This document shows positions 1-13,720 of a DNA stretch of 56,730 bases, in pieces; the first letter of the stretch is position 1, and each line of letters starts with the position of its first letter. The translations under genes were made by a program, and so were the position numbers. A model generated the notes under the pieces. The model had not been told where the DNA came from, did no database searches, and worked only from the letters and a program-made list of their open reading frames with translations. The stretch is taken from positions 1 to 56,730 of IMG/VR virus record IMGVR_UViG_3300022752_000084; one strand, 5' to 3'. The DNA comes from a virus (lineage: Duplodnaviria > Caudoviricetes).

Positions 1-23
1 ACTTGAAGCTTTGTTTCAATAGC

Positions 24-52
24 TTGACAAGCCAACCCCTCTGTGGTATTTA
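24..52 (+). promoter_or_regulatory. sigma70-type promoter candidate
   Basis: TTGACA at 24-29, 17-nt spacer, imperfect -10 TATTTA at 47-52. Confidence 0.4.
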
Positions 53-176
53 CGCGTGCGTGCGTGCGCGTTCATATATCTAGCTAAGCAAACGGCAATC
101 CTTAAGAGAATCTATAGAGTAGAAACCATAACCTAACCTTAACGACAAAGGATCTGATTGGCCGTACCTTTAAGTC

Positions 177-218
177 ACCGATCCGAAAGGTATCGGTCGC
201 TCCTAGACAATCGAACAG
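177..218 (+). promoter_or_regulatory. boxB-like GAAA hairpin plus boxA-like element, copy 1
   Basis: ACCGAT-CC-GAAA-GG-T-ATCGGT hairpin at 177-197, then CCTAGACAATC at 202-212; resembles cyanobacterial rrn boxA (GAACCTTGA[A/C]AA). Confidence 0.5.
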
Positions 219-1080
219 ATCCAAGCCAAGCCGCGAACCGTTCGCCTTGCCTTGCCACGGGGTTCCCGCTTTGCCATAGCTATCTGCTGTGAGATAAGGC
301 CGAATCCTAGGACAGGCTCAGTGTAACTATGCGAGAAGCAGTTTGGATCTTTTTGATTCTATGGTTCGCGAACCTAGACAATCTAATAGTTCTCCCGTTC
401 TTAGATAGCTAGAACGGATAGCCTACGGCATGGGAGTTCTATTTACATAGCGTGATCCTTTTAACTAAGGCAAACTGTGTGCAAGTTAGTGTTAACTTGT
501 CGGCTGGTAGTTCTTATCAGTATGCAGTTTGTATAGTTAACTTGTGCAATGGGATGTTAACAGTCAGCAAGCTGAACTTAAGTAAGCCTGTGGAACTTGT
601 CGCTGTTAACATTTAGGCTCACAACTTTTAACTAGCTAAGCTTAGCAACCTTAGTTAGGGTTCTTTATAACGAAACCTACAGTTCGTAACTGTAACTAGC
701 CCACACCTTTAAGTTTACTTATCGCCAGTGTGGTAATTGAATACTTAAGACACTAACTTCTAGTTAGTTATAGTCTAGAGTATTGAGTATCTGTCTATGC
801 CACAGGTACGCAAACTGTTTACGTTCAGGCTCTCACTACATCGTTACATGTTAGATGGCGAGATTGGACAATTAAGTGGACAGACTAACTCTAGGATCTA
901 TAACTAACTAGGTGATTTATTAAACTTTCTGGCCTTATCTGTAGAGTAATCTATAGGTGGGGCCAGATTGTTTATACTTAAAACTATTTTAGTTTAAGTT
1001 ATGATCACTTTAGATCATTATAGATCATCGGGCTTAAAAGTTCTCCTCCTGTGTATTACATAGGATGAGGACCTTTTGGT
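217..1080 (+). ncRNA. candidate large structured non-coding RNA or leader
   Basis: No ORF of 60 aa or more; many nested stems (217-224/343-350, 395-401/411-417, 471-482/520-531, 554-563/603-612, 760-773/898-911, 928-945/950-967) with G-U pairs that work on the + strand. Confidence 0.6.
363..389 (+). promoter_or_regulatory. boxA-like element, copy 2
   Basis: Palindrome GGTTCGCGAACC (363-374) overlapping GAACCTAGACAATCTAATAG; the 11-nt core is identical to 202-212. Confidence 0.5.
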
Positions 1081-1111
1081 TCTCTCACTATCATCAACCC
1101 AGGTGTAAATC

Positions 1112-1423
1112 ATGACTGATTTTGATTCTGTTCTTGCGCATGAGTTAAAACTTTATGCGGACACTTTTTCATCCATTCACTATAACGGCATAGGCCGAAC
1201 ATTAAGTAAGTTTTGGCTTAAAGATACGTTCAATTATGAACGGGCTTTAGGTTATGTTTACCGCAATTTGATAATACCAGCTGCAAAGGATTATCACCTT
1301 TGCTGTGGCTCACTTACTCAAGTTTGGCACACTATGTTTCCCATTCCAGAGCGTAAACAAGCGGCAGAATGTATTCTTAACGACTTTATCGCTGAGTTTA
1401 GATTAGGTAACTTCTGGGAGTAA
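1112..1423 (+). CDS. hypothetical early protein
   Basis: 103-aa ORF, AGGT upstream, first gene of the co-oriented early cluster. Confidence 0.75.
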   Translation: MTDFDSVLAHELKLYADTFSSIHYNGIGRTLSKFWLKDTFNYERALGYVYRNLIIPAAKDYHLCCGSLTQVWHTMFPIPERKQAAECILNDFIAEFRLGNFWE

Positions 1424-1447
1424 CAACTTTTTAACTTTATTATCCAC

Positions 1448-1642
1448 TTGCACTTCAACATTATGACCGGACTTAAACCATTCGCTGGCACCTTTATCTA
1501 TAAAGGTGTGCAGGTTAATTGTATTGATCCATCACGTAGATTAGGCGGCGATTTATTCTACTTTATCTCGCCACTAACTAACAAGATTGTGTGGACTACC
1601 ACGCCTAACAAAGCCCGTAAACTTATCAAGGAAACTTTCTAA
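1448..1642 (+). CDS. hypothetical early protein (start may be ATG 1463)
   Basis: ORF tiling in the early cluster. Confidence 0.6.
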   Translation: MHFNIMTGLKPFAGTFIYKGVQVNCIDPSRRLGGDLFYFISPLTNKIVWTTTPNKARKLIKETF

Positions 1643-1644
1643 CT

Positions 1645-1821
1645 ATGGAACGCATTTATCCTTTGAAGGTAACATTTGCCTCCCTCAATATAGGCCAGCA
1701 GTTTATACCCGAAAGGGGTGGATTAGCTGTCAAGCGAACTAATCGAACCGCAGATATTTGTCACCTAACACACAATAAACGTGTGTATTTTAAGCAGACA
1801 GATATTGTTTATTATTACTAA
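1645..1821 (+). CDS. small hypothetical protein, 58 aa (not in ORF track)
   Basis: Manually translated MERIYPLKVTFASLNIGQQF...IVYYY*; fills the gap between neighbours. Confidence 0.6.
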   Translation: MERIYPLKVTFASLNIGQQFIPERGGLAVKRTNRTADICHLTHNKRVYFKQTDIVYYY

Positions 1822-1847
1822 ACCAAAATCAAACCAAGGTACTAATC

Positions 1848-2105
1848 ATGACCCGCAAAACATTCAACGTAGCAGAGTTTAAGGACTACGTAAACTCTAA
1901 GCTTGTGCTTGATTATTTATCAGATGACGAAAAGTATGGGTTGTTATCTGCACTCGATCATATACTACATGAAACCGGAAACTATAAAGGATTCGGTTAT
2001 GTTTACAAAGATGACGTAAGGCCTTGCTTTCCAGATAAAGTAGGCGCTGACGCATGTAATCCTGCGTGGGATAAATCCCGTGACGTGCGCAGAAAGTATT
2101 ACTAA
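1848..2105 (+). CDS. hypothetical early protein
   Basis: 85-aa ORF with AAGG upstream. Confidence 0.75.
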   Translation: MTRKTFNVAEFKDYVNSKLVLDYLSDDEKYGLLSALDHILHETGNYKGFGYVYKDDVRPCFPDKVGADACNPAWDKSRDVRRKYY

Positions 2106-2128
2106 ACCACTCTAAAATCACACTAACA

Positions 2129-2341
2129 ATGAACTTACAATCTCAACTTGACCATTATCTCACCCAATGGGATATGAAGCAATCCACTAAACGTGGATAC
2201 AATCCTTTTGCTCTAGGTATTTACTTAGAACGGGCAGAAAGATTAGCTAAAGATGTAGCTCAAGGCGCCACAATTAGTGACGCTATTGATGAACATTTTT
2301 GCGACAGACTTGCAGCTTTCCTTCACAAAAAGTTCTCTTAA
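2129..2341 (+). CDS. hypothetical early protein
   Basis: 70-aa ORF tiling the cluster. Confidence 0.7.
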   Translation: MNLQSQLDHYLTQWDMKQSTKRGYNPFALGIYLERAERLAKDVAQGATISDAIDEHFCDRLAAFLHKKFS

Positions 2342-2367
2342 TTCAACTTTATCCGAGGCTTAATCTA

Positions 2368-2580
2368 ATGATTACTACTAAGACTGTGTTGATTAACAAC
2401 ACCGAATATGAACTTCCTGCTGTTAATAATCTAACACGGGTCGAGATTAACAACAAGCTGCACTACTTAGGTGACCAAATACTTAAGTTACGTATGCAAC
2501 AAGACGAGCTAATTAAAATGCGAGAGGAGTTAGATAATCGACCTATAGACTTATTTGATGAGATGTTTGAAACAACTTAA
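2368..2580 (+). CDS. hypothetical coiled-coil protein
   Basis: In-frame ATG at 2368 with GAGG upstream; heptad-like C-terminal half. Confidence 0.7.
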   Translation: MITTKTVLINNTEYELPAVNNLTRVEINNKLHYLGDQILKLRMQQDELIKMREELDNRPIDLFDEMFETT

Positions 2581-2668
2581 ATCACTGTCACGTTTGTATC
2601 AGTGGGCTGCGCATACTTACCACGCAGAAATTAAACACTCACTAACTAACACCTGAGGTACTTCTCAA

Positions 2669-2836
2669 ATGACAGACACACTCAAAGAGTATCATTTCAC
2701 TGATGAACAAATTGACTTTCTGATGCGAATTGTGCGAAACAATGCACAGTTTGAAGATGGCGAAGATCGTGAGTTTATGGAAGAACTTGCGAATCAAATT
2801 GAAGATCAAATTGTAAACCACCCTACCAACGACTAA
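2669..2836 (+). CDS. small acidic protein, 55 aa (not in ORF track)
   Basis: MTDTLKEYHFTDEQIDFL...NHPTND*; GAGG upstream; TAATG overlap with the next gene. Confidence 0.75.
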   Translation: MTDTLKEYHFTDEQIDFLMRIVRNNAQFEDGEDREFMEELANQIEDQIVNHPTND

Positions 2837-3102
2837 TGACCAAAACTACCATCACTCTCAATCAATTTCACAATCTTTTGGCAGATGCTTATGCTGTCTG
2901 TGTGAATGATACTCTATACTTTGTAGGGTATGATACGGACGACAATCCTTACATTTCAGACAATGATGGGCAGGATTATGTTGATCTCTCCACTGTAGAT
3001 GGTGACATTGAAGTGGATGATTATGCTGTGTCATTTTGGGTACAAGGAGAACCCATTCGTATGCTATTTCTCAACATCAAATCTCCTATTCCAAATGACT
3101 GA
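2836..3102 (+). CDS. hypothetical acidic protein
   Basis: 88-aa ORF coupled to the upstream stop. Confidence 0.75.
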   Translation: MTKTTITLNQFHNLLADAYAVCVNDTLYFVGYDTDDNPYISDNDGQDYVDLSTVDGDIEVDDYAVSFWVQGEPIRMLFLNIKSPIPND

Positions 3103-3295
3103 CACACAAATGACTTGGTTTATACAAATCCACGACGCAGAAGGTAACGTTCTTCTGCTCAATCAAGCACTTGGAGAATACAAAAATTATTCCAAGTTTG
3201 TTGATAACAAAGCACAGAAAGTTGTCTATCAGTTTCCTACTGCAAAGCGTTGGGAAGTGCGTCCTCAACCTTATACTTCCAAGGTCATTATTTGA
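3095..3295 (+). CDS. hypothetical protein
   Basis: In-frame ATG at 3095 overlapping the previous stop. Confidence 0.65.
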   Translation: MTDTQMTWFIQIHDAEGNVLLLNQALGEYKNYSKFVDNKAQKVVYQFPTAKRWEVRPQPYTSKVII

Positions 3296-3303
3296 CCGCG
3301 CCT

Positions 3304-3351
3304 CTAAATCCTCGCTCGCTTCGCTCACTGCGGGCCACCGCATACACTAAC
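3304..3351 (+). repeat. intergenic GC hairpin repeat, copy 1
   Basis: CTAAATCCTCGCTCGCTTCGCTCACTGCGGGCCACCGCATACACTAAC; 47/48 identical to 4772-4819. Confidence 0.95.
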
Positions 3352-3373
3352 CTAACACTCACTAACTAACACC

Positions 3374-3592
3374 ATGGAAACCTACAGAGTAACTGCCATT
3401 GAATTTGATTTAGAAGATGACGAAGAGCTCACGAAGTACGAAGCAATTCGTATCAGTGAAATACTCGAAGAAAGGTATCTTTATAGTGAATGGACTGTAG
3501 AAGAGGAAGACGAAGGTTTTAGTATCGCAGATTTAATATCTAACGAATGCAAATGGTGTGTAAACTCCATTGATTACAGATTAGTTAAGTAA
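3374..3592 (+). CDS. small acidic protein, likely paralog of 6465-6770
   Basis: Shared pattern Y-x-V-x-x-I-x-F-D...RY...W...D-x-I-[ST]...[NS]S[IL]. Confidence 0.75.
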   Translation: METYRVTAIEFDLEDDEELTKYEAIRISEILEERYLYSEWTVEEEDEGFSIADLISNECKWCVNSIDYRLVK

Positions 3593-3618
3593 CCAATCCA
3601 ACCAACCAAACTAACACA

Positions 3619-3789
3619 ATGACTTACGATTTTACAACCAACAAACTCGATTTACTCACTGCTAGGGAACAATTAATGGAAGATATTGATTGTATTGTTG
3701 ATGAATACTTCCAGGAGTACGGTATTACACACGACCCTCAACTTGTTAAAGTCTTGTGTGATGCCGTATGTAGCAACTTTCCTTTTTAA
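3619..3789 (+). CDS. small hypothetical protein, 56 aa (not in ORF track)
   Basis: MTYDFTTNKLDLLTAREQLMEDIDCIVDEYF...LCDAVCSNFPF*; pattern recalled from cyanophage small ORFs. Confidence 0.7.
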   Translation: MTYDFTTNKLDLLTAREQLMEDIDCIVDEYFQEYGITHDPQLVKVLCDAVCSNFPF

Positions 3790-3820
3790 TTCACCACACT
3801 TAAACATCCAAATTATTACA

Positions 3821-4549
3821 ATGAAACGCCCCAAAGGTTTTGTTTTATGGGAGGGATTATCGCCTCTCGATAGATCCCCAATCGTATGCATCGCAACACT
3901 TAAATCAGCTAATCGCAAGACTGGCAATATGATTCAAACATTCATATTGCGCCAAGATATTAACCCTGTAGCTGCGCTTAAAAGTGGCGATGATTTATCA
4001 ATTTGTGGTAATTGTTATCACCGAGGCTCAGGTTTTGGTGACAATAGCAAGCCACACAGGAAAAGATCTTGTTACGTAAATGTAGGCCAGGCGCCTAACA
4101 GTGTGTGGAAATCATATAGGCGTAATGGTTACCTTAAATACGATGCAACTCTACACTCTAGATATTTCAAAACTCGTAAGATCCGATGGGGAAGTTATGG
4201 CGATGGCGCTATGTTGCCCGCTGAGTTAGTTACATATTTCAACGACCTTTGTATATCTCACACAGGATATACTCACCAATGGCGAGAATCATTCGCTCAG
4301 TGGAGCAAAGGTGTATTTCAGGCAAGCTGTGACGGGCTACAGGATTACATTGAAGCATCTGCACATGGTTGGAAAACCTTTGCAGTTGTAGCAGAAAACT
4401 CTGAAGCATTCAGTGGTAAACAATGCCCAGCTACAGTAGATAATAGTCAGGCGCAATGCCTAACATGTAGCCTATGCGATGGCAACAAATTAGATATATT
4501 TGTAGAAGTACATGGTCCTGGCGCTTCTAATTTTGTGGCGGCAGTGTAG
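3821..4549 (+). CDS. Cys-rich phage protein, Gp88-like or radical-SAM-like
   Basis: SANRKTG, CxxC...CY, IRWGSYGD, TGYTHQW, CPA...CxxCxLC...VHG; start reassigned to ATG 3821. Confidence 0.6.
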   Translation: MKRPKGFVLWEGLSPLDRSPIVCIATLKSANRKTGNMIQTFILRQDINPVAALKSGDDLSICGNCYHRGSGFGDNSKPHRKRSCYVNVGQAPNSVWKSYRRNGYLKYDATLHSRYFKTRKIRWGSYGDGAMLPAELVTYFNDLCISHTGYTHQWRESFAQWSKGVFQASCDGLQDYIEASAHGWKTFAVVAENSEAFSGKQCPATVDNSQAQCLTCSLCDGNKLDIFVEVHGPGASNFVAAV

Positions 4550-4599
4550 CCCAAACCAAACACAGGATGTAAACTGCCTATGAAACATAGAGCTAATCC

Positions 4600-4764
4600 G
4601 TGGCCGACAATGTAACCACGCGGCAATACAAAATTGAATTAGTTATCGTTGTTAATGCAGATAAAGCTAGCCCTTTAGTGTGGTTATCTAACTGCATCTA
4701 TGAGAACATCGACTTAAGCAACGGTGAAGACCTTAAATCATTCAACATGGAGGAACTCGCATGA
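4600..4764 (+). CDS. small hypothetical protein, 54 aa, GTG start
   Basis: Manual translation; TAAACT -10 at 4570. Confidence 0.5.
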   Translation: MADNVTTRQYKIELVIVVNADKASPLVWLSNCIYENIDLSNGEDLKSFNMEELA

Positions 4765-4771
4765 ATTGACA

Positions 4772-4819
4772 CTAAATCCTCGCTCGCTTCGCTCACTGCG
4801 GGCCGCCGCATACACTAAC
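4772..4819 (+). repeat. intergenic GC hairpin repeat, copy 2
   Basis: Near-identical to 3304-3351; TTGACA at 4766 and TACACT at 4811. Confidence 0.95.
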
Positions 4820-4850
4820 TCAACACTCACCCAATCTCATTATTATTCTG

Positions 4851-5084
4851 ATGAACACCTTTTTTGATAAAATCCCTTTCACTGCATTTTCTGCAATCCT
4901 CATAGGTTCAGCTCTAGGTATTGGCATCACAGGTTTGCTCCAAAATCAAATTAATAAACACACTGAACGTACTTGCAACGGCACAATCATCACAATCCGC
5001 ACAGTACCCACGACCTTAAAACATTGCCTACCGTTAAAACAACCTCGTCACTTAATAACTGCGGGGCGCATTTCAACACTGTAA
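4851..5084 (+). CDS. small membrane protein
   Basis: N-terminal hydrophobic helix FSAILIGSALGIGITGLL. Confidence 0.65.
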   Translation: MNTFFDKIPFTAFSAILIGSALGIGITGLLQNQINKHTERTCNGTIITIRTVPTTLKHCLPLKQPRHLITAGRISTL

Positions 5085-5097
5085 CTAACTCAAATCC

Positions 5098-5658
5098 ATG
5101 GTAAACGACGCCCTTCGCTATAACAATCCCGAACTGCGGGCTGCTGTTAAAGAACGCCTAAGTTGTGATCCTACTAAACCTAGTGGCTTAGTATGGAAAC
5201 TACCTGTGAATAACGGTAAGATGAAGGTCGGCCAGATGGCTGGCAGTTTAGATGTTACATGCGGCATATATTACATATCAATTAACAACAAGACATATAA
5301 AGCTCATAATCTCGTTTTAATCCTTCACGACGTTATATTTGGAGAGGGTGAAACAGGTGATCACATTGATGGCAACAAGTTAAATAACTCTATTGACAAT
5401 CTGCGTCTTGTTAATCAGAAGAAACAAATTTATAGAAACAGACACCGCAACAAAATCTTATACGCTTACACTTCGTGGGATAAAGTATTAGAGAAATATA
5501 AATCTAGCTATTGCGATCCAAGCACATGGCAGTTCTTTTTTGTAGGATACTTTGCAGACGCTTACGATGCGCATACAGCTGCTTGCGATCACATGCAACA
5601 ACACAACCCTCAAATACTTTGTAAGCGTCAACCTCCCTTCTCTCTATCTCAACCATGA
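5098..5658 (+). CDS. HNH homing endonuclease with AP2-like C-terminus
   Basis: YKAHNLV...DHIDGNKLNNSIDNLR motif intact; GYF...AYDAH tail. Confidence 0.85.
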   Translation: MVNDALRYNNPELRAAVKERLSCDPTKPSGLVWKLPVNNGKMKVGQMAGSLDVTCGIYYISINNKTYKAHNLVLILHDVIFGEGETGDHIDGNKLNNSIDNLRLVNQKKQIYRNRHRNKILYAYTSWDKVLEKYKSSYCDPSTWQFFFVGYFADAYDAHTAACDHMQQHNPQILCKRQPPFSLSQP

Positions 5659-5903
5659 TTTACTCGATTGATGAATCTCAGATTGAACCTACAGGTGAAT
5701 CAACACACCTTCGCACATTATTAGTTGTAACCACGCCATGTAAGTTGCAGCGCGAAGTTAAGAAAACTTTAGGTTGGAAAGGGTGTCACATTCATGCAAC
5801 ACCCATAGATAACGGATTACGTTTATCAATGAAACGCATCCTTAGGTACGCAATAGTCAAAGAAGTGGAGAATCCACTATCACAGATCAATCAAGATCTA
5901 TGA
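5655..5903 (+). CDS. hypothetical protein
   Basis: ATGA overlap with the HNH gene. Confidence 0.6.
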   Translation: MIYSIDESQIEPTGESTHLRTLLVVTTPCKLQREVKKTLGWKGCHIHATPIDNGLRLSMKRILRYAIVKEVENPLSQINQDL

Positions 5904-6038
5904 CGAATCATTTCTTCATTCCGCCTTTCTTTGTGCCTGCTTTAGTACCAGCTTTGCCACCTTTAGAACCAGTGGCGCCTTTCATACCAGCCATGATGCA
6001 AAAATCAAACAACCTTAATTATAGGAAATTTTAGCCCT

Positions 6039-6395
6039 ATGAATCAATTTCCTTGCACAAGTTGCGGCCTCTGTTGTCGCATTGTTGGTCATCTTTTGCC
6101 CAACATTGATAAGATTAAAGACCCATTAAATAAACATTTAGTCAGCACATTTCCCTATAAAACTAATGACGGTGTATGCGAAATGCTGCAACCAGATAAC
6201 ACTTGCGCAGTGTATAACGACAGGCCCGACTTGTGCAACATAAACACTGTGGCAAAACTCCGAGGAATCACAAATCTAAATGAATATCATAAACTTAACG
6301 CTCAGATATGTAACAGCTGGATTCAATTAAGTAGATCAGATCCTTCCTACTTAATCGACTTAACACAATTTGACAATATGGGAGCCACGCTCTGA
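6039..6395 (+). CDS. YkgJ-family Cys-cluster (zinc/iron-chelating) protein
   Basis: CTSCGLCC...CEML...CAVYNDRPDLC. Confidence 0.85.
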   Translation: MNQFPCTSCGLCCRIVGHLLPNIDKIKDPLNKHLVSTFPYKTNDGVCEMLQPDNTCAVYNDRPDLCNINTVAKLRGITNLNEYHKLNAQICNSWIQLSRSDPSYLIDLTQFDNMGATL

Positions 6396-6408
6396 TATTA
6401 TTACCATG

Positions 6409-6434
6409 TCCTCGCTCGCTTCGCTCACTGCGGG
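6409..6434 (+). repeat. intergenic GC hairpin repeat, copy 3 (26-nt core)
   Basis: TCCTCGCTCGCTTCGCTCACTGCGGG identical to copies 1 and 2. Confidence 0.95.
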
Positions 6435-6464
6435 GGCGTCGCACACATCTCCTGTAACTTTCTG

Positions 6465-6770
6465 ATGGATACTGAACTCACAGGCTACGAAGTAATTTCG
6501 ATCAGTTTCGATGTTTACGATGATGCTTTAACCCATGATGATCAAGCAAATTTAAGTAACAGTTTGTTAGCTCGATACAGAGGTAGCACTTGGATTTCTA
6601 ACTCTTTAGAAACAGTTGTTGATGCTATTACTAAAGAATCTGGTTATACAATTAGCTCTCTATCAATTAAATCTATCAACTTCGAGGAACTTAATGATGC
6701 CGAAGAAGAGGACTGCGATCAAGACAGCGCCCGTGTTTCGCTGTTTCAAAGTAACAATAACAACCCCTAA
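6465..6770 (+). CDS. small acidic protein, likely paralog of 3374-3592
   Basis: Sequence pattern similarity; also lies directly after a hairpin repeat. Confidence 0.7.
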   Translation: MDTELTGYEVISISFDVYDDALTHDDQANLSNSLLARYRGSTWISNSLETVVDAITKESGYTISSLSIKSINFEELNDAEEEDCDQDSARVSLFQSNNNNP

Positions 6771-6945
6771 AAAAACTTTTGAAGATTACGTACGCACACC
6801 ATTAAATTGGAGTCCAGCAAAAACTACAGCCCGTTATCTTTCAACTCATAAATATACAAATGTAGTTGATATTGTAGCCACGCGGCTACCTTTGAACTTT
6901 GTCATTACCTCACTTATTTCTTTTATCCATTACGAGGACTATTAA
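6697..6945 (+). CDS. hypothetical basic protein
   Basis: In-frame ATG at 6697 (MPKKRTAIK). Confidence 0.5.
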   Translation: MPKKRTAIKTAPVFRCFKVTITTPKKTFEDYVRTPLNWSPAKTTARYLSTHKYTNVVDIVATRLPLNFVITSLISFIHYEDY

Positions 6946-6946
6946 C

Positions 6947-7129
6947 ATGCGTTACCGAATTCGCGTATTTGTCGAAAGTAACAAAGGAGAACGTAAATGT
7001 AACACAATTGTCAGAGTTTTCTTCCAACAGAAAGATTTAGATTCTTATGTTGCGGGGTTTGCTGATGGTAGTGCAGTTGCTGTTGACGGAGTTGTTTTAG
7101 GCTCAAAAATTACACCCATGGAAAGTTAA
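6947..7129 (+). CDS. hypothetical protein
   Basis: ATG at 6947 with GAGG upstream. Confidence 0.6.
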   Translation: MRYRIRVFVESNKGERKCNTIVRVFFQQKDLDSYVAGFADGSAVAVDGVVLGSKITPMES

Positions 7130-7266
7130 GTTACTTATTATTGATTAGAGATAAATAACTTTCTGAGAGCAGGTGCAAATCATGGTAAACTTCTATTAAG
7201 TAGAAAAAGTTTTAATAAATAATGATGTTGGGGATGCTATATCCCTATAACATTAAATAAACCGCA

Positions 7267-7398
7267 ATGGATTACATGAAACTGTTAAATGTATTTGGTA
7301 GAACTTACTGGACATTAGGATTAATTACTTGGTTTTTCACAACCAGTGATCATGCTCTCCTATTATCCCTGATAGGTTTCTTCCTCATGTGCCTTTAA
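7267..7398 (+). CDS. small membrane peptide, 43 aa
   Basis: Manual translation; two short hydrophobic segments. Confidence 0.45.
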   Translation: MDYMKLLNVFGRTYWTLGLITWFFTTSDHALLLSLIGFFLMCL

Positions 7399-7410
7399 CT
7401 AGATTACCTG

Positions 7411-7439
7411 TTGACAAGAGGCTCTCGCTTAGCTATCTT
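7411..7439 (+). promoter_or_regulatory. sigma70-type promoter
   Basis: TTGACA-17 nt-TATCTT upstream of 7503. Confidence 0.75.
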
Positions 7440-7502
7440 GTTTACAGGCGGCACCGGCCTATTTAACGTGGCGCACCTCTTCCTCTATCCTATCAAAATC
7501 AC

Positions 7503-7928
7503 ATGGACACACCTTCCTTTCGCGATCTAGTGGCAGTTGGGCGCACCGCTGCCGAGTGCTGGAATGAATTCGATATAGCGCAGATGCACTGCGAGCAAGC
7601 GTTTGGCACACCCTTCAATGCAGCCAAAGGCATCCTCAACACAGATATAAATGTGGCTGAGGCTCGCGGAGTTGATCTAGCTCCTTTCCAAGGCCCTGAA
7701 TCGTCCTTTAAGTTTCCTGATCTTAGTGCGCATATAGTTGTGCGGGTTACCAGAAAACCCACGGGGCACAAAAACATCGATAAGATCAATGCCAAAATCG
7801 AGAAGCTGGAGCTCCAGCTAAAGGCTGCAAAAATTGAACGGAAAAGTTTGATTGAGCAGTTGGTTATTACCGGTGCTGTAGATCAGGTAACCGACAATAT
7901 CGGCCTAGCTTTCACGAGGCTCAAATAA
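7503..7928 (+). CDS. hypothetical protein with coiled coil
   Basis: 141-aa ORF behind a canonical promoter. Confidence 0.8.
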   Translation: MDTPSFRDLVAVGRTAAECWNEFDIAQMHCEQAFGTPFNAAKGILNTDINVAEARGVDLAPFQGPESSFKFPDLSAHIVVRVTRKPTGHKNIDKINAKIEKLELQLKAAKIERKSLIEQLVITGAVDQVTDNIGLAFTRLK

Positions 7929-8083
7929 TGTTGAAAGTCACATCTTTTCTGCTGCTCACTCTCTTGTCTGCAGTTATCACCTGCGCATCGATGGGTTACG
8001 ACCCGTTGGAGCCTAACCGCGAAAGCTCCCAGCACCTCAAAGGATTCTGTAAAGATCCTAAATTCTATGGCCCTGGTTGTTAA
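7928..8083 (+). CDS. small signal-peptide-bearing protein, 51 aa
   Basis: TAATG coupling; MLKVTSFLLLTLLSAVITCASMG... Confidence 0.5.
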   Translation: MLKVTSFLLLTLLSAVITCASMGYDPLEPNRESSQHLKGFCKDPKFYGPGC

Positions 8084-8100
8084 TCCCAATAAACTTGCCA

Positions 8101-8130
8101 AAGCGTCTGCGGAAGGCGCTTCTTTTTATT
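8101..8130 (+). terminator. intrinsic terminator
   Basis: AAGCGTCT-GCGGA-AGGCGCTT followed by CTTTTTATT. Confidence 0.65.
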
Positions 8131-8159
8131 CCCCCTACAAATTTCTTTAAGTTTTTGAA

Positions 8160-9359
8160 ATGAACTCTTATCTTCTTTCTTGCTCAATTTCGGCGAACGT
8201 CAGACAATCAATTCAAATCAAATTTGATGATTTGAAATTGCCAGCTTCAGTTATCACGACGTTGGAACGACAAAACACTGTAAGCCTTCGACCAAATCTA
8301 TCTAACGCTCTTAAGGGAGAGTTAGATGATCTCCGTGTTTTACAGCGCGAATTGTACGACAACTATTGTTTACATTTTGGAGACACACATTTTGTAACAG
8401 CAAATTATTTTGATGGTGCGAATGATATTATTGCGAAAATTCGCGCACAAGCGGGAATTGCTAACGAAAAACTATACAAAATATGGGAACAAGAGTTTTC
8501 TAAGTGGAATCAAACAGTTGAAGATTTTCTTCGACCTCTGTTTCCTACAGACGAAGAATATAAACTTGCATGTGATGCTTACATGAGAGTTTTCCCGACT
8601 CAAGAAGAATACAGAAACCCAATTCGAGTTTTTGTTGTGGGTCCACTGCCGATTAGTTTAGAAGCCGTCTCAACACCTATTGAAGGCGACTCTTTTGATT
8701 CTGTATTAGCACATAGTAATTACATTAATACTAAAGAAGTACTTGATGCTGCTCACGCCAGTGCAGCTGATAGAGCTTTACAAATTAGTGCAGAACTTCT
8801 AGATGATTTAGATACACGAACTGTTACTAAGATTGGTCGGCAACAAACTGGCGGGGACAAGAAACGAGGTTCGTGGGAGATAACAGCATCGAAGCTCAAA
8901 TTAATTAGTGATTCAGTTCCTGGGTTTGAACATCTTTCCGAGTTAGCTGAAAAACTACTGCTTGCTGGTGCTGCAATTCAATCTTCTAACCGTACAGAAC
9001 GAGACCAAGGTGCAGTTACATTTCAAGAATTGCAAACAGAAATTCGTACAGAATTAGAATCTATTGTATCCACGCGGGACAAAACTAAAGGTTTGGAGAT
9101 GTTGCAGCAATCCTTGGCGCTTTCAAATACTTACAAGTCTTTATGTGACCGTATAAAGAAAGTTGAGAATTCGAACGCTCTAAACTTGTTAATTGCTGAA
9201 TCAAACATTGAACAGGATATTTATCGTCAACGCTCCAAACAGTTACATAAACTTATTTCACAAAGGAGGGAGTTGATTGGAGCTGCAGGAGAAAATCTCG
9301 ATACACTTATTTCAACAGTGGCTACCGCCGCTGAGGATTTTGAAACCCCTGATTTCTAA
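8160..9359 (+). CDS. DUF3150-like helical protein
   Basis: N-terminal pattern (L..LR..QRELY...C..FG..HFV...I..I.....L...WE.EF..W) resembles DUF3150; lies upstream of an AAA/VWA pair. Confidence 0.5.
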   Translation: MNSYLLSCSISANVRQSIQIKFDDLKLPASVITTLERQNTVSLRPNLSNALKGELDDLRVLQRELYDNYCLHFGDTHFVTANYFDGANDIIAKIRAQAGIANEKLYKIWEQEFSKWNQTVEDFLRPLFPTDEEYKLACDAYMRVFPTQEEYRNPIRVFVVGPLPISLEAVSTPIEGDSFDSVLAHSNYINTKEVLDAAHASAADRALQISAELLDDLDTRTVTKIGRQQTGGDKKRGSWEITASKLKLISDSVPGFEHLSELAEKLLLAGAAIQSSNRTERDQGAVTFQELQTEIRTELESIVSTRDKTKGLEMLQQSLALSNTYKSLCDRIKKVENSNALNLLIAESNIEQDIYRQRSKQLHKLISQRRELIGAAGENLDTLISTVATAAEDFETPDF

Positions 9360-9589
9360 TGAGTAGAACTCGTTACGCCCTCTGTTCAACAGAGGGTTAT
9401 CTTTCTGATATTGAAAATTACGTTAGCGATCCTGAAGAAGCTGTTACTTTCAGCTGCTTTGATGTCGCTGTTCAAAAACTCAATACTTTACAACCGTTAT
9501 TAAAAAACAGTTGTCGAGTTACTGAGGTACGCATTCCTTTTCCCCTTACAAAACCTTTTAGACTCGATGGCTACTCGAATAAGCACTAA
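9359..9589 (+). CDS. hypothetical protein
   Basis: TAATG coupling. Confidence 0.7.
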   Translation: MSRTRYALCSTEGYLSDIENYVSDPEEAVTFSCFDVAVQKLNTLQPLLKNSCRVTEVRIPFPLTKPFRLDGYSNKH

Positions 9590-10265
9590 GTTCTTTCAAA
9601 CAATAGATTTGAAGCTTCCGTTAGGTGTTACATCACCTACCACTGTTGATCTATACTATTCTAAACGCGCCAACACCTTAGGTGAATTTTTTATTAAACC
9701 TTTAGTTATTGTTTATGCCGATGGCTCCACGGTGGCGACAGAACTCTTCTCACGTTTTAGCTTTGCTTGCCCTCAAGACGCAATTGATGACTTACTGCAG
9801 TTTATAGAAGTGAACATCCCTACTAAACAAGTTACATTTAACGCTTATCGAAACGATGAAGAATTTAAATTTCCTATTCTCGCTAGCCAACTAAATAGTA
9901 TTTTTGAACCAGAGATTTTACAGCGTTCTTTAAATTATAAGAAATATTATTACGGTAAAGACGAAGTGACAGGCTATTGGTACTCTAAAAATTCTACAAC
10001 ACACTCTCTGAGTTTCGCTCCTTTTTATAAAGAAGAATCAATCCCTTCTACATTTGTTCCTACAGATGAAGTTAAGGACCGTATGTTTATGAACAAAATG
10101 TCAAAACTGCATGAAGCATATCATGAAAAGTTGTTAGAGATATTGCACAAATATGAGCTTGAGTGGACAATGACTTACAATCAAGTTTATAACGATCATC
10201 TTTCTTTTACTGATAGCTCGAATTTTGGCGACATTCAAGAGATTTTAAATAATTACAAACAATGA
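9567..10265 (+). CDS. hypothetical protein
   Basis: 232-aa ORF. Confidence 0.75.
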   Translation: MATRISTKFFQTIDLKLPLGVTSPTTVDLYYSKRANTLGEFFIKPLVIVYADGSTVATELFSRFSFACPQDAIDDLLQFIEVNIPTKQVTFNAYRNDEEFKFPILASQLNSIFEPEILQRSLNYKKYYYGKDEVTGYWYSKNSTTHSLSFAPFYKEESIPSTFVPTDEVKDRMFMNKMSKLHEAYHEKLLEILHKYELEWTMTYNQVYNDHLSFTDSSNFGDIQEILNNYKQ

Positions 10266-10266
10266 A

Positions 10267-10301
10267 CCTCCGCCCGGAGGCCGCTCACCAACTGCTATAA
10301 T
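10267..10301 (+). promoter_or_regulatory. extended -10 promoter with upstream hairpin
   Basis: CCTCCG-CC-CGGAGG hairpin, then TG-C-TATAAT (10293-10301); CATCA repeats in the leader. Confidence 0.7.
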
Positions 10302-10330
10302 CTACATCACATCACATCACATCATTCATC

Positions 10331-11521
10331 ATGAACGACACCCTCTTTGCCAAGCTTCAAAACTTTCGTGGTTCCCTCAACTCCTCATCACTCGAACGTG
10401 AGCATGTAATTGACGGCCTTCTCGCAACATTACTATCACAACAAAATGCTTTCCTCCTCGGAGCACCAGGAACCGGCAAATCTGATTTAGTGCGCACCAT
10501 CTGCAATGGTATTTCTGGTGCCAACTATTTTGGTTACTTACTCACACCCACGACGGATCCTTCGGAAATCTTTGGACCAGTCGCTGTAAGCAAACTATTA
10601 AATGACGAATATACCCGTGATGTTCAAGGGTATTTACCTGACGCACACATTGCTTTTACAGACGAACTATTTCGTGGTTCATCGGCAATTTTAAACTCAC
10701 TACTTACCCTGTTAAATGAACGAACTTTTAATAACGGCAAGGAAGTTATAAACACTCCGATTCAATCGATTGTTGCAGCAACAAACAGTTGGCCTGACGA
10801 AGAATCCTTGCAAGCATTTGCAGATAGATTTCTATTTCGACCAACAGTTGAATTCTTAAAAAAGCCTGCGTCTAAACGTTTATTAGATTCGTGGGCTGTG
10901 GGTAATGAAGAAAGACCAAAAGTTGGTGTTCACCTTACATTGCCAGAGCTTAAAGCCCTTCAACAGGAAGCTAAAAACATAAAAGTTTCTGAAGAGTTCT
11001 TAGATAAATTTGTGGAGTTATGGGAAATGTTGGCCGCGAGGGCAATCGTAATCAGTGATCGCCGTCGTGTTCAAATCCTCAAGTTTCTTAAAGCTTGGGC
11101 TGTTGTGCAGGGTGATGAAGAGCTTTATCCCGAACACATGCACAACTCCATGATTAACATTGTTTATCAAACTCAAGAGGATCAAGAAACTATTGCGGAA
11201 GTCTTAGAGCACGTTGTACCGACAGCAAATCGAATGTTTGCTGATGCAAAACGAGCTGCTGCGGGGATTATGACAGAATATCATGTTTGCTCTACTAAAC
11301 AAAAATCTAAACAAGGTATTGCTGAGCTTAACGAATTCGTCGGCAACCTACGGAAATATCATAAAGATATGCAAACCGTAAAAAATAAAGTTGCAGAAAT
11401 TTTGGACACTTCTAAATTTAGAATGAATATCCTAGACAGAACGCAAGGCGTAAAGCTAGAACAACAACTGCAAAACTATTTAGATACGTTAGCTATTGCC
11501 ATTTCAGACTTCTCTAAGTAA
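10331..11521 (+). CDS. MoxR/RavA-like AAA+ ATPase
   Basis: Walker A GAPGTGKS, Walker B AFTDELFR, LNSLLTLLNER, AATN, DRF. Confidence 0.92.
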   Translation: MNDTLFAKLQNFRGSLNSSSLEREHVIDGLLATLLSQQNAFLLGAPGTGKSDLVRTICNGISGANYFGYLLTPTTDPSEIFGPVAVSKLLNDEYTRDVQGYLPDAHIAFTDELFRGSSAILNSLLTLLNERTFNNGKEVINTPIQSIVAATNSWPDEESLQAFADRFLFRPTVEFLKKPASKRLLDSWAVGNEERPKVGVHLTLPELKALQQEAKNIKVSEEFLDKFVELWEMLAARAIVISDRRRVQILKFLKAWAVVQGDEELYPEHMHNSMINIVYQTQEDQETIAEVLEHVVPTANRMFADAKRAAAGIMTEYHVCSTKQKSKQGIAELNEFVGNLRKYHKDMQTVKNKVAEILDTSKFRMNILDRTQGVKLEQQLQNYLDTLAIAISDFSK

Positions 11522-11545
11522 AATAAAGCGCATCTAAACAATTGT

Positions 11546-11725
11546 ATGCCTGAAACACAAGAAACTCTACTTGCAATCCGCACCGAGCTGGCGACATTTC
11601 TCGAAGCTGTCGAAGAGATAAAACCTTCGCAAGCTTTTGACCCTTTGGTCAAACTTTTAATCAGCTTAGATCGTAAAATCATTGATTCCAAAAAACATGA
11701 ACACCAACTTCAACAAAACCTCTGA
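11546..11725 (+). CDS. small hypothetical protein, 59 aa
   Basis: Manual translation MPETQETLLAIRTELATF...; fills the AAA-VWA gap. Confidence 0.55.
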   Translation: MPETQETLLAIRTELATFLEAVEEIKPSQAFDPLVKLLISLDRKIIDSKKHEHQLQQNL

Positions 11726-13253
11726 GTTTATTCGGCTTACACACAACGCTCCGTTAACCCTGACTTGTTCTGCACTAGCTGATTTCCTGTGGGAAGATTT
11801 TATTCGTGAGACCCGCTCCTCTGTCTCTTACATTTCAAACACACACAATATCACACAGATCTCTAGATTCGGTAAAGAACTTTTTGAACGACTTTATCAA
11901 GGTGACTCAGTTACTTGGTTAGTAAGTCTTGAAGATTACGAAGACTATTTTCGAGCAAAACAAGATGGTAGCCCCACGGCAATTTTAAAAAATTATAAGC
12001 CTGAGAATGCGTTTTGGTATTTGGTGATGAGTGCATTATCTAGTGCTTCCGCATGGACTCAGTTATTACAAAATAGTGTTGGTAATCAATTTAACGCAGG
12101 AAATAACGCCGTTAGAATCCTTAATGATTTGGCTGACTTTGTTAGAGAATTGATAGAGGATAATCAAATTGATGTAGATACACTGCTAAAAGCAGGAGAA
12201 AAACTTGAGAGTTTACGAGAAAAGTTCAAACAGGCAAAAGCAAATGGTGACGATAAAGGTGCAGAGGCTGCGCGAGCAGAGGGAAAAGCCGTTGCCCAAA
12301 CAATTCAAAATCAATTGGAACTTTTAAAAGCTTCAGTAGAGGCAGAGGTAAATAATGCGGTAGATGACGCTTTACGTACATCTAAAAATGAAAACGATGC
12401 GTTAGAGACTCTTTGGGGGACTACAGAGGGGGAGGGCTTTCACACGCAAGACTTACAAACGAAAAAAGAATTAGCGGCTAAGTTACAAAAAAATAACACA
12501 CTGAAACAAGTTGCTAAACAATTAGGGTTTTTAAAAAGAATTTGGACAGAAAGAAAACGTGCGAAAAGATCACGAGCAAACTATGAGGCGATTAACGGAG
12601 CCTGCTTTAGTAACGACATTACAAAAGCATTTCCCTTGGAACTTGCACTCGCAGGAACAGAAAAGGGCCGCGCATTATTTGCTCTTAAGCACATGCACAA
12701 AACTATACTCACTAAAGACTATGAGGCGCATAGAAAGGATCTGGGCCGAGGTCCAATAATTCTATATGTGGATACCTCAGGATCAATGTCGGGCAGCTTT
12801 GATATTTGGGCAAAGGCCATAACAATGACTATTGCGGCCCACGCGGGCAAAGATTCCAGGGATGTACATGTACACCTTTTTGACAATCGTGTCGGTGATT
12901 CTTGTATTTTAAAACATAAGAATAATAATCTTGTTCTTATAGATTTTATCTCTTCGTGGCGATTGGGCGGCGGCACTTCGTTTAACGCTGTGCTACTTCA
13001 TGCGCTGACTGCTCTTAAAGATTTCAAAAATGCTGATGTCCTTATGATTACCGATGGTTTTTCGTCATTAGACGCCCACTTGGTTACCAAATTAAATAAA
13101 CACAAAGAAACCGAAGGGTTTCAATGGACGACTTTATGCTTGGGTAGCTCACCTGTTCATACTTTGCACGACTTTTCAGATTTTGTTTACTCGGTGGATA
13201 TTTCAAATCCCGACGAAACAATTGACACTATTCAAAAATCTATAAGAGTGTAA
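11697..13253 (+). CDS. ViaA-like von Willebrand A domain protein
   Basis: MIDAS DTSGSM, GGTSF, ITDG; adjacent to the RavA-like ATPase. Confidence 0.9.
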   Translation: MNTNFNKTSEFIRLTHNAPLTLTCSALADFLWEDFIRETRSSVSYISNTHNITQISRFGKELFERLYQGDSVTWLVSLEDYEDYFRAKQDGSPTAILKNYKPENAFWYLVMSALSSASAWTQLLQNSVGNQFNAGNNAVRILNDLADFVRELIEDNQIDVDTLLKAGEKLESLREKFKQAKANGDDKGAEAARAEGKAVAQTIQNQLELLKASVEAEVNNAVDDALRTSKNENDALETLWGTTEGEGFHTQDLQTKKELAAKLQKNNTLKQVAKQLGFLKRIWTERKRAKRSRANYEAINGACFSNDITKAFPLELALAGTEKGRALFALKHMHKTILTKDYEAHRKDLGRGPIILYVDTSGSMSGSFDIWAKAITMTIAAHAGKDSRDVHVHLFDNRVGDSCILKHKNNNLVLIDFISSWRLGGGTSFNAVLLHALTALKDFKNADVLMITDGFSSLDAHLVTKLNKHKETEGFQWTTLCLGSSPVHTLHDFSDFVYSVDISNPDETIDTIQKSIRV

Positions 13254-13255
13254 TC

Positions 13256-13441
13256 ATGAAAGCAAAAAATTATCGAATTTTAACGCTGGCTGTTGAAGAA
13301 GGTGTGCGCTACGGTATTTCGCGATCAAAAAAATACGATCCTGATCCACCGGAAGAGGTTGTTATTGATACGCTGACCGACGCAGTGATGAGCCACATTT
13401 TGGAGTATTTTAGTTTCAACGAAAATGAGATTACCGATTAA
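13256..13441 (+). CDS. small conserved phage protein
   Basis: AVEEGVRYG..R..K...P...EYFSF pattern. Confidence 0.7.
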   Translation: MKAKNYRILTLAVEEGVRYGISRSKKYDPDPPEEVVIDTLTDAVMSHILEYFSFNENEITD

Positions 13442-13443
13442 TT

Positions 13444-13614
13444 CTATATACAATCACTTTTATTCTTAATCGACCGCACAAATAATTCTGTAAAAAGTTC
13501 CATCTTTTGTGCACAAACTGCATGGGGATAATAACTAATTGCATTTTTTAAACTAACTAATTCTTCCCGTTCATCCGCTGTTAGCCTTTCGTCGTTGTGG
13601 GTAGTTACCGTCAT
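13444..13614 (-). CDS. small hypothetical protein, 56 aa (not in ORF track)
   Basis: MTVTTHNDERLTADEREELVSLKNAI...KMELFTELFVRS; pattern recalled from cyanophage small ORFs. Confidence 0.6.
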   Translation of the reverse strand: MTVTTHNDERLTADEREELVSLKNAISYYPHAVCAQKMELFTELFVRSIKNKSDCI

Positions 13615-13720
13615 TAAGCTTTATCTTCTATCTCTATGTTAGCGTTTCAAAAAAGGAACCTCGTTAATGTAAACCATGCTCTAAAGAAAAGCAAGTGCGG
13701 ACTATGCGGGTTTCCGTACT

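Follow-up and report, generated by a model that had tools for sequence, protein, structure and literature searches.

A predicted modular structured RNA heading the early region of an uncultured freshwater phage

Among the families that Rfam includes are GOLLD and ROOL. Both are large RNAs of phages and prophages, credited with no known function in the relevant passages of two accounts (PMC7567579; bioRxiv 10.1101/2024.12.08.627333). A similar case is the lytic Vibrio phage ICP1 where, according to the passage devoted to it in PMC7567579, an RNA of ∼800 nucleotides (nt) comes from a gap of ∼1 kb without open reading frames (ORFs), lies beside the lysis cluster and is the most abundant transcript, with no known role. 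Here we describe an element of comparable size at the start of the viral record IMGVR_UViG_3300022752_000084 from IMG/VR, whose positions 1 to 56,730, the whole stretch of DNA that was analysed, are called the window below. The window is a linear viral contig of 56,730 bp from an uncultured phage, estimated to be ∼70% complete; its family-A DNA polymerase reaches a best identity of 28% among 50,697 cultured-phage records. That the + strand of the element, ∼177–1085, folds as a structured RNA is well supported and in our view very probable. The narrower reading, that it is the transcribed non-coding structured leader of an immediate-early operon and the first example of a new RNA family, we put at about an even chance.

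The likeness to GOLLD and ROOL, as those passages portray them, lies in a length of hundreds of nucleotides, in carriage by phages and in the combination of conserved blocks with variable parts. It differs from them in having no Rfam match, in heading an early operon instead of lying near tRNAs, and in consisting of a rod and hairpin cassettes, with no multi-way ornate core shown. With ICP1 the locus shares a gene-free gap of ∼1 kb and a similar RNA length, to the extent that the source describes them; the ICP1 RNA, however, stands beside lysis genes and its abundance was shown, whereas ours is predicted from sequence. A blastn comparison of window 1–1110 and of L021 1–1400, a contig of the sister lineage described below, with cultured-phage records gave no match, no comparison aimed at ICP1 being made.

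Several leader RNAs offer further parallels. Those of P4, P1, P7 and N15 are regulatory RNAs cut from an early or immunity leader; they measure ∼70–100 nt, carry repeated complementary segments and pair with mRNA leaders. PMC7567579 names these RNAs. Our element resembles them in two triplets of segment, complement and segment (198–211/352–368/369–383 and 1040–1046/1066–1073/1078–1084); it differs in that searches of the window turned up no convincing complementary target and that the second copy of the first triplet, 369–383, varies without compensation. The T7 early leader has host-type promoters and long irregular hairpins before the first gene, and its cleavage by ribonuclease (RNase) III stabilises the mRNA. 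The likeness here is a long non-coding stretch that heads the early region, with long hairpins before the first gene; to our knowledge, the T7 leader does not comprise ∼0.9 kb of conserved structure. Antitermination RNAs of the put type are two-hairpin elements of ∼70 nt, which act on the transcribing polymerase so that it reads through downstream terminators. No Rfam model matched in 1–1300, and a terminator scan of 1–14000 found few, weak + strand sites downstream of the element.

No known family accounts for the element, which the earlier note on this DNA had been unable to place by eye. Rfam 15, whose models span large RNAs, introns, riboswitches, 6S RNA and the phage pRNA, gave no match at gathering score anywhere in the window, and the five weak matches in 1–1300 at E up to 10 are all far below threshold, the best being mir-1245 (24.2 bits versus a threshold of 79), with RAGATH-7 at 16.1 versus 111.8 on the − strand. 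The elements of relatives had no Rfam matches either. The closest study in data and evidence is that of Fremin, Bhatt and Kyrpides (2023), who screened IMG/VR intergenic regions by covariation and reported 8,495 DNA-virus motifs of 29–151 nt (PMC10690425). That size range leaves no room for the element as a 0.9-kb whole; some of its hairpins, taken singly, might already be catalogued in the lists of that source.

Folding of the gene-free gap

The earlier note, made from the letters and a list of ORFs, had claimed a 1.1-kb gap without any ORF of at least 60 amino acids (aa), packed with nested stems, and had named a comparison of its folding with shuffled sequence as a check. The longest ORF in 1–1111 indeed has 54 aa (452–616, +), and others have 44 aa (158–292, +) and 40 aa (102–224, −). 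All seven stems for which coordinates had been given pair as claimed, G-U counts included (Table 1). The final hairpin exists too, but not in the register 1037–1077 that had been proposed, which would be a plain pairing of 1037–1054 with 1060–1077; the true one is 1032–1054/1058–1080. Within 200 nt there are 6 perfect inverted 10-mers, whereas 300 dinucleotide shuffles average 0.26 and never exceed 4; perfect inverted 12-mers number 3 against 0.02. The + strand of 177–1085 folds to –317.8 kcal/mol versus –241.5 ± 6.9 in shuffles (z = –11.08), with none of 20 shuffles as low. The advantage is found on both strands of 200–1100 and is uneven (z = –10.61 on + versus –4.59 on –). For 1–176, z is about 0 on either strand, so that no excess of folding is seen there; in the two coding controls, 1112–1423 and 1448–2105, z ranges from –1.6 to –2.7 over the two strands.

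This asymmetry is seen in single parts of the element as well, with z of –4.4 on + and –0.45 on − for the rod-like domain D1, and of –4.75 and –2.3 for the 3′ block. G-U pairs make up 42 of the 330 pairs of the predicted fold. Each of them would turn into an A-C mismatch if the structure belonged to DNA or to the − strand, which favours an RNA read from the + strand. The proposal of a + strand RNA rather than DNA cruciforms thus gains from strand-asymmetric folding, from conserved G-U pairs and from compensatory changes in four blocks (see below). The anatomy is that of a string of independently folding modules, unlike a single ornate fold.

The region does not behave as a protein-coding gene. 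A protein-coding reading was rejected because the largest ORF, of 54 aa, is broken by a deletion in the relative L008, which lacks 43 alignment columns inside it (alignment A2), and because indels of 1 and 5 nt in the D1 alignments (A5) break the frame. A leader peptide from the ATG at 1064 was rejected as well, since its start codon is not conserved, being ACG in L022 and GTG in L005.

Conserved modules and variable cassettes

Relatives were gathered by protein and pattern scans, and a covariance model of D1 (R1; 190 positions, 61 pairs) was run over 27 sources. On the + strand it matched the window (202 bits) and nine loci, eight of them full-length (167–212 bits) and one, L025, truncated at an end (101.5 bits); the − strand maximum was 24.7 bits. 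L038 is a further, tenth full-length match (183 bits). The sample comprises 11 loci from ten related phage contigs in about three sub-lineages (window and L008; the L003 group; L005 and L023), all of them from uncultured freshwater phages. Related DNA is present in lake and freshwater sequencing runs. Each of the five viral records searched whole carries a single copy of the element. A degenerate D1 pattern found six places in prokaryote genomes, none of which matches the covariance model, and the upstream glycosyltransferase gene, used as a search anchor, led to no relatives beyond known or near-identical contigs.

Conservation between sub-lineages is concentrated in blocks equal to window 107–451, 672–750 and 986–1085. 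Covariation among homologs had been named as a check on the RNA; in four conserved blocks, compensatory changes preserve the helices. In D1, 96% of 497 cells are paired, compared with 24–40% when partners are slid, and 14 of 61 pairs change on both sides, a count reached by none of 500 shuffles. Three of its G-U pairs are invariant, and many others alternate with G-C or A-U. The corresponding values are 94.7% of cells and 5/22 pairs for D2 (slid controls 27–47%), 100% and 4/18 for B3 (21–45%), and 94.9% and 6/27 for the 3′ block (41–50%). For each of the four blocks the paired-cell count was reached by 0/500 shuffles; the number of doubly changed pairs was reached by 13/500 for D2, 65/500 for B3 and 2/500 for the 3′ block. 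One relative, L012, has a different sequence at the place of D2. We also considered D1 as a 6S-like decoy. 6S-type RNAs are rods of ∼180–200 nt with a large central bubble; this reading was rejected because D1 lacks such a bubble (its biggest internal loop, 9 nt opposite 7 nt, lies near the base), and no Rfam match was found.

Two places in the conserved blocks offer alternative partners. The motif GAACCTAGACAATC occurs twice, at 202 (segment 198–211) and at 373. The first copy pairs with 352–368 and closes D1. The second, within 371–384 at the start of D2, adjoins 352–368 so that both form a 20-bp near-palindrome centred at 368/369; the uncompensated variation in 369–383 is A/T at 376. At the 3′ end, the terminal hairpin with the invariant apex TGTATTACATA is found in 12/12 sequences (–18 to –24 kcal/mol), and 3 of its 19 pairs change on both sides. 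Segment 1066–1073, which lies in its 3′ arm, can pair either with 1040–1046 or with 1078–1084. The alternative hairpin that results from the latter is obtained in every one of the 12 sequences if folding is done without the 5′ arm (–9.5 to –16.4 kcal/mol), and L005 and L023 retain it with concerted letter changes. These competing hairpins may be a switch.

Between the conserved blocks lie the cassettes V1 and V2, not alignable between the three sub-lineages. Within a sub-lineage they are 97–100% identical (L003 and L005 groups) or 89–92% (window versus L008); because of this high identity, covariation can hardly be tested in them. For V2 the structure is nevertheless supported, by z, by strand asymmetry and by substitutions that avoid pairs. 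Its z is –10.3 on + and –6.0 on − in the window, and non-homologous versions give –5.5/–2.5 (L003) and –9.4/–4.0 (L005). Between the window and L008 only 3/118 paired positions are substituted, versus 10/42 unpaired ones, and all three changed pairs are kept by wobble. V1 is without such support.

The cassettes are swapped, deleted or added between relatives. L008 carries a G+C-richer insert of 270 nt (13451–13721) between modules, with an ORF of 90–100 aa (13455/13485–13757) of no known Pfam family; as the insert lies between duplicated 37-mers equal to window 876–912, the flanking modules stay whole. L038 has an additional hairpin module and a B3 chimeric between two sub-lineages. Among close relatives, whose glycosyltransferase genes are 96–100% identical, identity is 79–100% in D1, 58–99% in D2, 98–99% in V2 and 69–70% in gene 1, which is a mosaic pattern. 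The contigs of DNA runs are several times deeper over D1 and B3 than over the neighbouring cassettes, which fits blocks common to many co-occurring strains.

A sister lineage (L006, L015, L016, L021 and L026) has the same upstream block, GATC boxes, hairpin before gene 1 and flanking genes, and in the slot between them (L021 1–1400, L006 1–860, and L015, L016 and L026) a different predicted structured RNA of ∼0.9 kb. It folds with z of –5.8 on + and –3.4 on −, shows both-side changes in 8 of 112 predicted pairs (4 sequences), has GNRA loops and carries a TCGACAGGCTG-like motif twice, at a distance of ∼175 nt, much as GAACCTAGACAATC occurs as a pair in the window. The L006 type is not detectably homologous to D1, since R1, run with filters off over six sources (L021, L015, L014, L027, L028, L030), found at best 11.6 bits (E 0.14). 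Upstream of it, a good promoter-like site with phased repeats can be read by eye. Farther upstream, L021 has an AT-rich stretch (120–420) with three palindromes AAACAG..CTGTTT, suggestive of an array of operators or of an origin-like element.

Table 1. Positions of stems, modules and flanking signals in the window
Feature	Position	Strand	Remarks
CG/TG alternating tract	51–70	.	Length varies, ∼100 nt in L005 and L023; outside the folded RNA (alignments A2, A7)
Short repeats phased ∼11 nt	107–141	+	Directly 5′ of the putative promoter; read by eye
Putative sigma-70-like promoter	142–170	+	–35 ACGACA 142–147, 17-nt spacer, –10 TACCTT 165–170
Possible 5′-terminal hairpin	177–197	+	GAAA loop; read from sequence and alignment A7; competes with outer D1 helix 1
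D1	187–377	+	Rod-like domain of ∼190 nt, 61 pairs in 7 helices; contains stem 217–224/343–350
Stem	217–224/343–350		8 Watson–Crick pairs
D2	385–443	+	Hairpin domain with the CCGTTCT/AGAACGG stem; RNAalifold on alignment A8
Stem	395–401/411–417		CCGTTCT/AGAACGG, 7 Watson–Crick pairs
V1	452–671	+	First variable hairpin cassette; holds stems 471–482/520–531 and 554–563/603–612
Stem	471–482/520–531		9 Watson–Crick and 3 G-U pairs
Stem	534–540/628–634		TAGTTAA/TTAACTA
Stem	554–563/603–612		10 Watson–Crick pairs
B3	672–750	+	Hairpins 678–694 and 701–733, conserved unpaired tail 734–750; RNAalifold on A9
V2	751–975	+	Second variable cassette; 760–773/898–911 closes a branched module, then 928–967 hairpin and T-rich tail
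Stem	760–773/898–911		14 Watson–Crick pairs
Stem	928–945/950–967		14 Watson–Crick and 4 G-U pairs, GTAA loop
GATC boxes	999–1028	.	Three, exactly 10 bp apart (1003, 1013, 1023); first two also form a small hairpin, 999–1020
Terminal hairpin	1032–1080	+	Invariant apex; ∼30 nt 5′ of the gene 1 ribosome-binding site
Alternative hairpin	1067–1084	+	Base of terminal hairpin 3′ arm pairs with downstream copy of 5′ arm
Ribosome-binding site and first early gene	1100–1423	+	AGGTG 1100–1104; gene 1112–1423, 103 aa, no known family

Ends of the element and alternative readings

The place of the element in the genome is best seen in the 58-kb relative G002, where it lies mid-contig, at ∼41.4 kb, 3′ of a short + strand methyltransferase/glycosyltransferase block and where leftward late genes switch to rightward early genes. 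In relatives the ORF-free gap is ∼1.28 kb and starts upstream of window position 1. The genes after 1112 are small, on the + strand and without known family, as is usual for early genes. We favour the leader reading because the element is on the same strand as the early genes and adjoins them, because it has no conserved internal terminator or promoter, and because an ORF sits among the modules in L008; such an insert between intact modules is natural for a polycistronic leader.

For the 5′ end, 9 sequences were scanned, and 6 of them carry, at a common position of the alignment, TTGACA followed by a 17–18 nt spacer and a –10 element with A2 and T6; the –10 hexamers are CATGCT, CATGAT or TACCTT. 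The L008 promoter region equals that of the window (A7). A CA at 176–177, 6–7 nt 3′ of the –10, is invariant, so a transcription start near 177 appears plausible, and the aligned promoter may be counted in favour of a leader. Host RNA polymerase would start near 177 at the sigma-70-like promoter 142–170, with phased repeats upstream, and would transcribe the ∼0.9 kb of RNA before continuing into gene 1, at 1112, and the small early genes that follow. The dense structure would shield the long untranslated 5′ stretch from Rho and RNases, with RNase III-type processing or stability points at the terminal hairpin and at the long helices, which are nearly perfect. This would leave the mRNA with a protected 5′ end and might set free a stable structured RNA.

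A metatranscriptome, X20, contains contigs of a relative that cover 1–112, 293–928 (a single 613-nt contig), 1316–1638 and 1842–2114, which is compatible with transcription and nothing more; the stretches that its contigs leave uncovered carry no information. A leader motif, ACTAACTAAC, is mildly enriched in the window (11 versus 4.5). The search for antisense targets, a blastn-short comparison of 101–1111 with the rest of the window, returned nothing longer than 13 nt. One 13-mer, in B3 (688–700), recurs in sense orientation in three tail-spike paralogues (19193–19205, 36225–36237 and 42651–42663, all on the − strand; E 0.7 each); this is probably chance plus paralogy.

Several points tell against the leader reading or the structural case behind it. 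X20 depths of 6–14 are similar over the element and genes, and DNA carry-over is possible; of its ends with adapter and GGG, one is + sense at 293 and another is − sense at 2114, and no transcript ends were seen. The window promoter is of a weaker form, agreeing with the consensus at 7/12 positions and falling below the consensus-scan threshold, and in the scan of nine sequences L038 had no promoter at the aligned place. Helix 1 of D1 (15 pairs) is without double changes, alignment A6 was fitted to the covariance model, and the shuffle controls overstate significance because the sequences represent about three sub-lineages. The z of V1, –3.4 on + and –3.5 on −, gives no strand asymmetry, and its substitutions between the window and L008 (12/115 paired, 8/60 unpaired) show no structure bias. 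The shielding from Rho and RNases and the processing are steps that we infer. Finally, the hairpin 928–967 followed by TTGTTTAT passes the terminator scan as the longest-stemmed terminator-like site in the first 14 kb, and with its T-rich tail it could mark the end of a separate RNA in the window phage.

This last point leads to the main rival, a free-standing, trans-acting large non-coding RNA of the GOLLD, ROOL or ICP1 kind, which we regard as possible and hold only tentatively. Such an RNA would extend from ∼177 to a terminator at 967–975 or 1072–1085 and might, soon after infection begins, act on some target of the host or of the phage; the early genes would then have their own promoter within the GATC boxes (978–1028), both suppositions being as tentative as the whole. 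Its size and its conserved blocks with variable modules resemble the known large phage RNAs, and the ICP1 RNA from an ORF-less gap, as PMC7567579 describes it, is a parallel. Besides the terminator-like site there is a promoter-like site, 978–1005, right behind 928–967 (9/12 in the window, 10/12 in L008), and among close relatives D1 (79–93%) diverges faster than the flanks (96–100%). However, neither signal is positionally kept: the 928–967 hairpin is absent from the L003 and L005 sub-lineages (A2), and no promoter-like site in the interval from V2 to gene 1 keeps its position across sub-lineages. The conserved hairpin 1032–1080 is followed by 4 T in the next 8 bases, below the terminator-scan threshold, and can fold into the other hairpin. 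The ORF among the L008 modules and the exchange of modules as independent units also speak against a free-standing RNA, as does an X20 depth of the element no higher than that of neighbouring genes, although contig depths cannot rank genes.

We find it improbable that 177–1000 works purely as DNA, be it an origin of replication, a region for packaging or entry, or a series of palindromes or cruciforms bound by proteins, with any RNA structure incidental. DNA-level signals do exist. The 11-nt phased repeats are TAACC-type in the window and most relatives, another 11-mer repeated three times in L038 and GGTTCAC-type in L021; the CG/TG tract varies; and L021 has its AT-rich stretch with three palindromes just upstream. 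The three GATC boxes are conserved in 11/11 aligned sequences (A10), and the unrelated L021-type element also has two of them 10 bp apart. Their helical phasing suggests a DNA-level protein site. The frequency of GATC is ordinary genome-wide (3.56 per kb versus 3.67 expected). Several independent assemblies (the window, L021, L006, L015 and L016) start within this intergenic region, next to simple repeats such as the CG/TG tract; these could be breaks at repeats or reflect nearness to genome ends. Two observations stand against a DNA element: only on the + strand are G-U pairs either retained or replaced by G-C and A-U, and for D1, V2 and the 3′ block the − strand gives a far worse fold. An origin was rejected by GC skew as well: the cumulative skew has no extremum at the locus in G002, and that of the window falls steadily. 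Moreover, the DNA-level features lie at the edges (1–176 and 999–1028) and so can coexist with an RNA, which they probably flank. Chance inverted repeats or a decayed coding region are hardly credible, for although small ORFs up to 54 aa exist and no function is known, this is contradicted by z = –11, by an inverted-repeat excess seen in 0/300 shuffles, by frame-breaking indels and by the presence of the element at 11 loci with compensatory changes.

Neighbouring features and significance

Downstream of the element, a 59-nt intergenic repeat occurs on the + strand in three copies (3304–3362, 4772–4830 and 6404–6462; 95% and 61% identical to the reference copy) and is absent from 1–1111. It has a GC-rich core with a short hairpin, and its first two copies end within ∼20 nt of the next gene start (3374 and 4851). 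Its role could be that of a promoter specific to the phage, of a site for processing or of some other regulatory signal in the early region. An HNH endonuclease (5098–5658) is encoded among the early genes, and a MoxR-type AAA ATPase (396 aa) followed by a VWA-domain protein (523 aa) occupies 10331–13253 (+). In the block upstream of the element, L005 has a transfer RNA (tRNA) gene on the − strand (849–921, 56.7 bits); ARAGORN found no tRNA and no transfer-messenger RNA in the window.

Large structured RNAs are rare and most are without known function, so that new families are candidates for new RNA biochemistry. This locus provides ready-made comparisons: four blocks with covariation support, a defined early-gene slot, natural module swaps, and a sister lineage in which an equally long, different RNA takes that slot. 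As a leader, the element would be unusually long among the structured 5′ regions of phage operons. Should it act in trans, it would be an RNA made before any phage protein.

More speculatively, and in our opinion unlikely, the element would represent a new class of large modular phage RNA, the first product of infection, acting in trans without translation. In that still doubtful picture the conserved rod and hairpins might bind a host factor, and the long double-stranded cassettes might, with no better prospects, be decoys for host RNA-targeting nucleases or defence sensors. A decoy role would account for how quickly D1 and the cassettes turn over among genomes that are nearly identical elsewhere. 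If this were true, the RNA of the L006/L021 type would turn the locus into an 'RNA-first' slot general to this group of phages.

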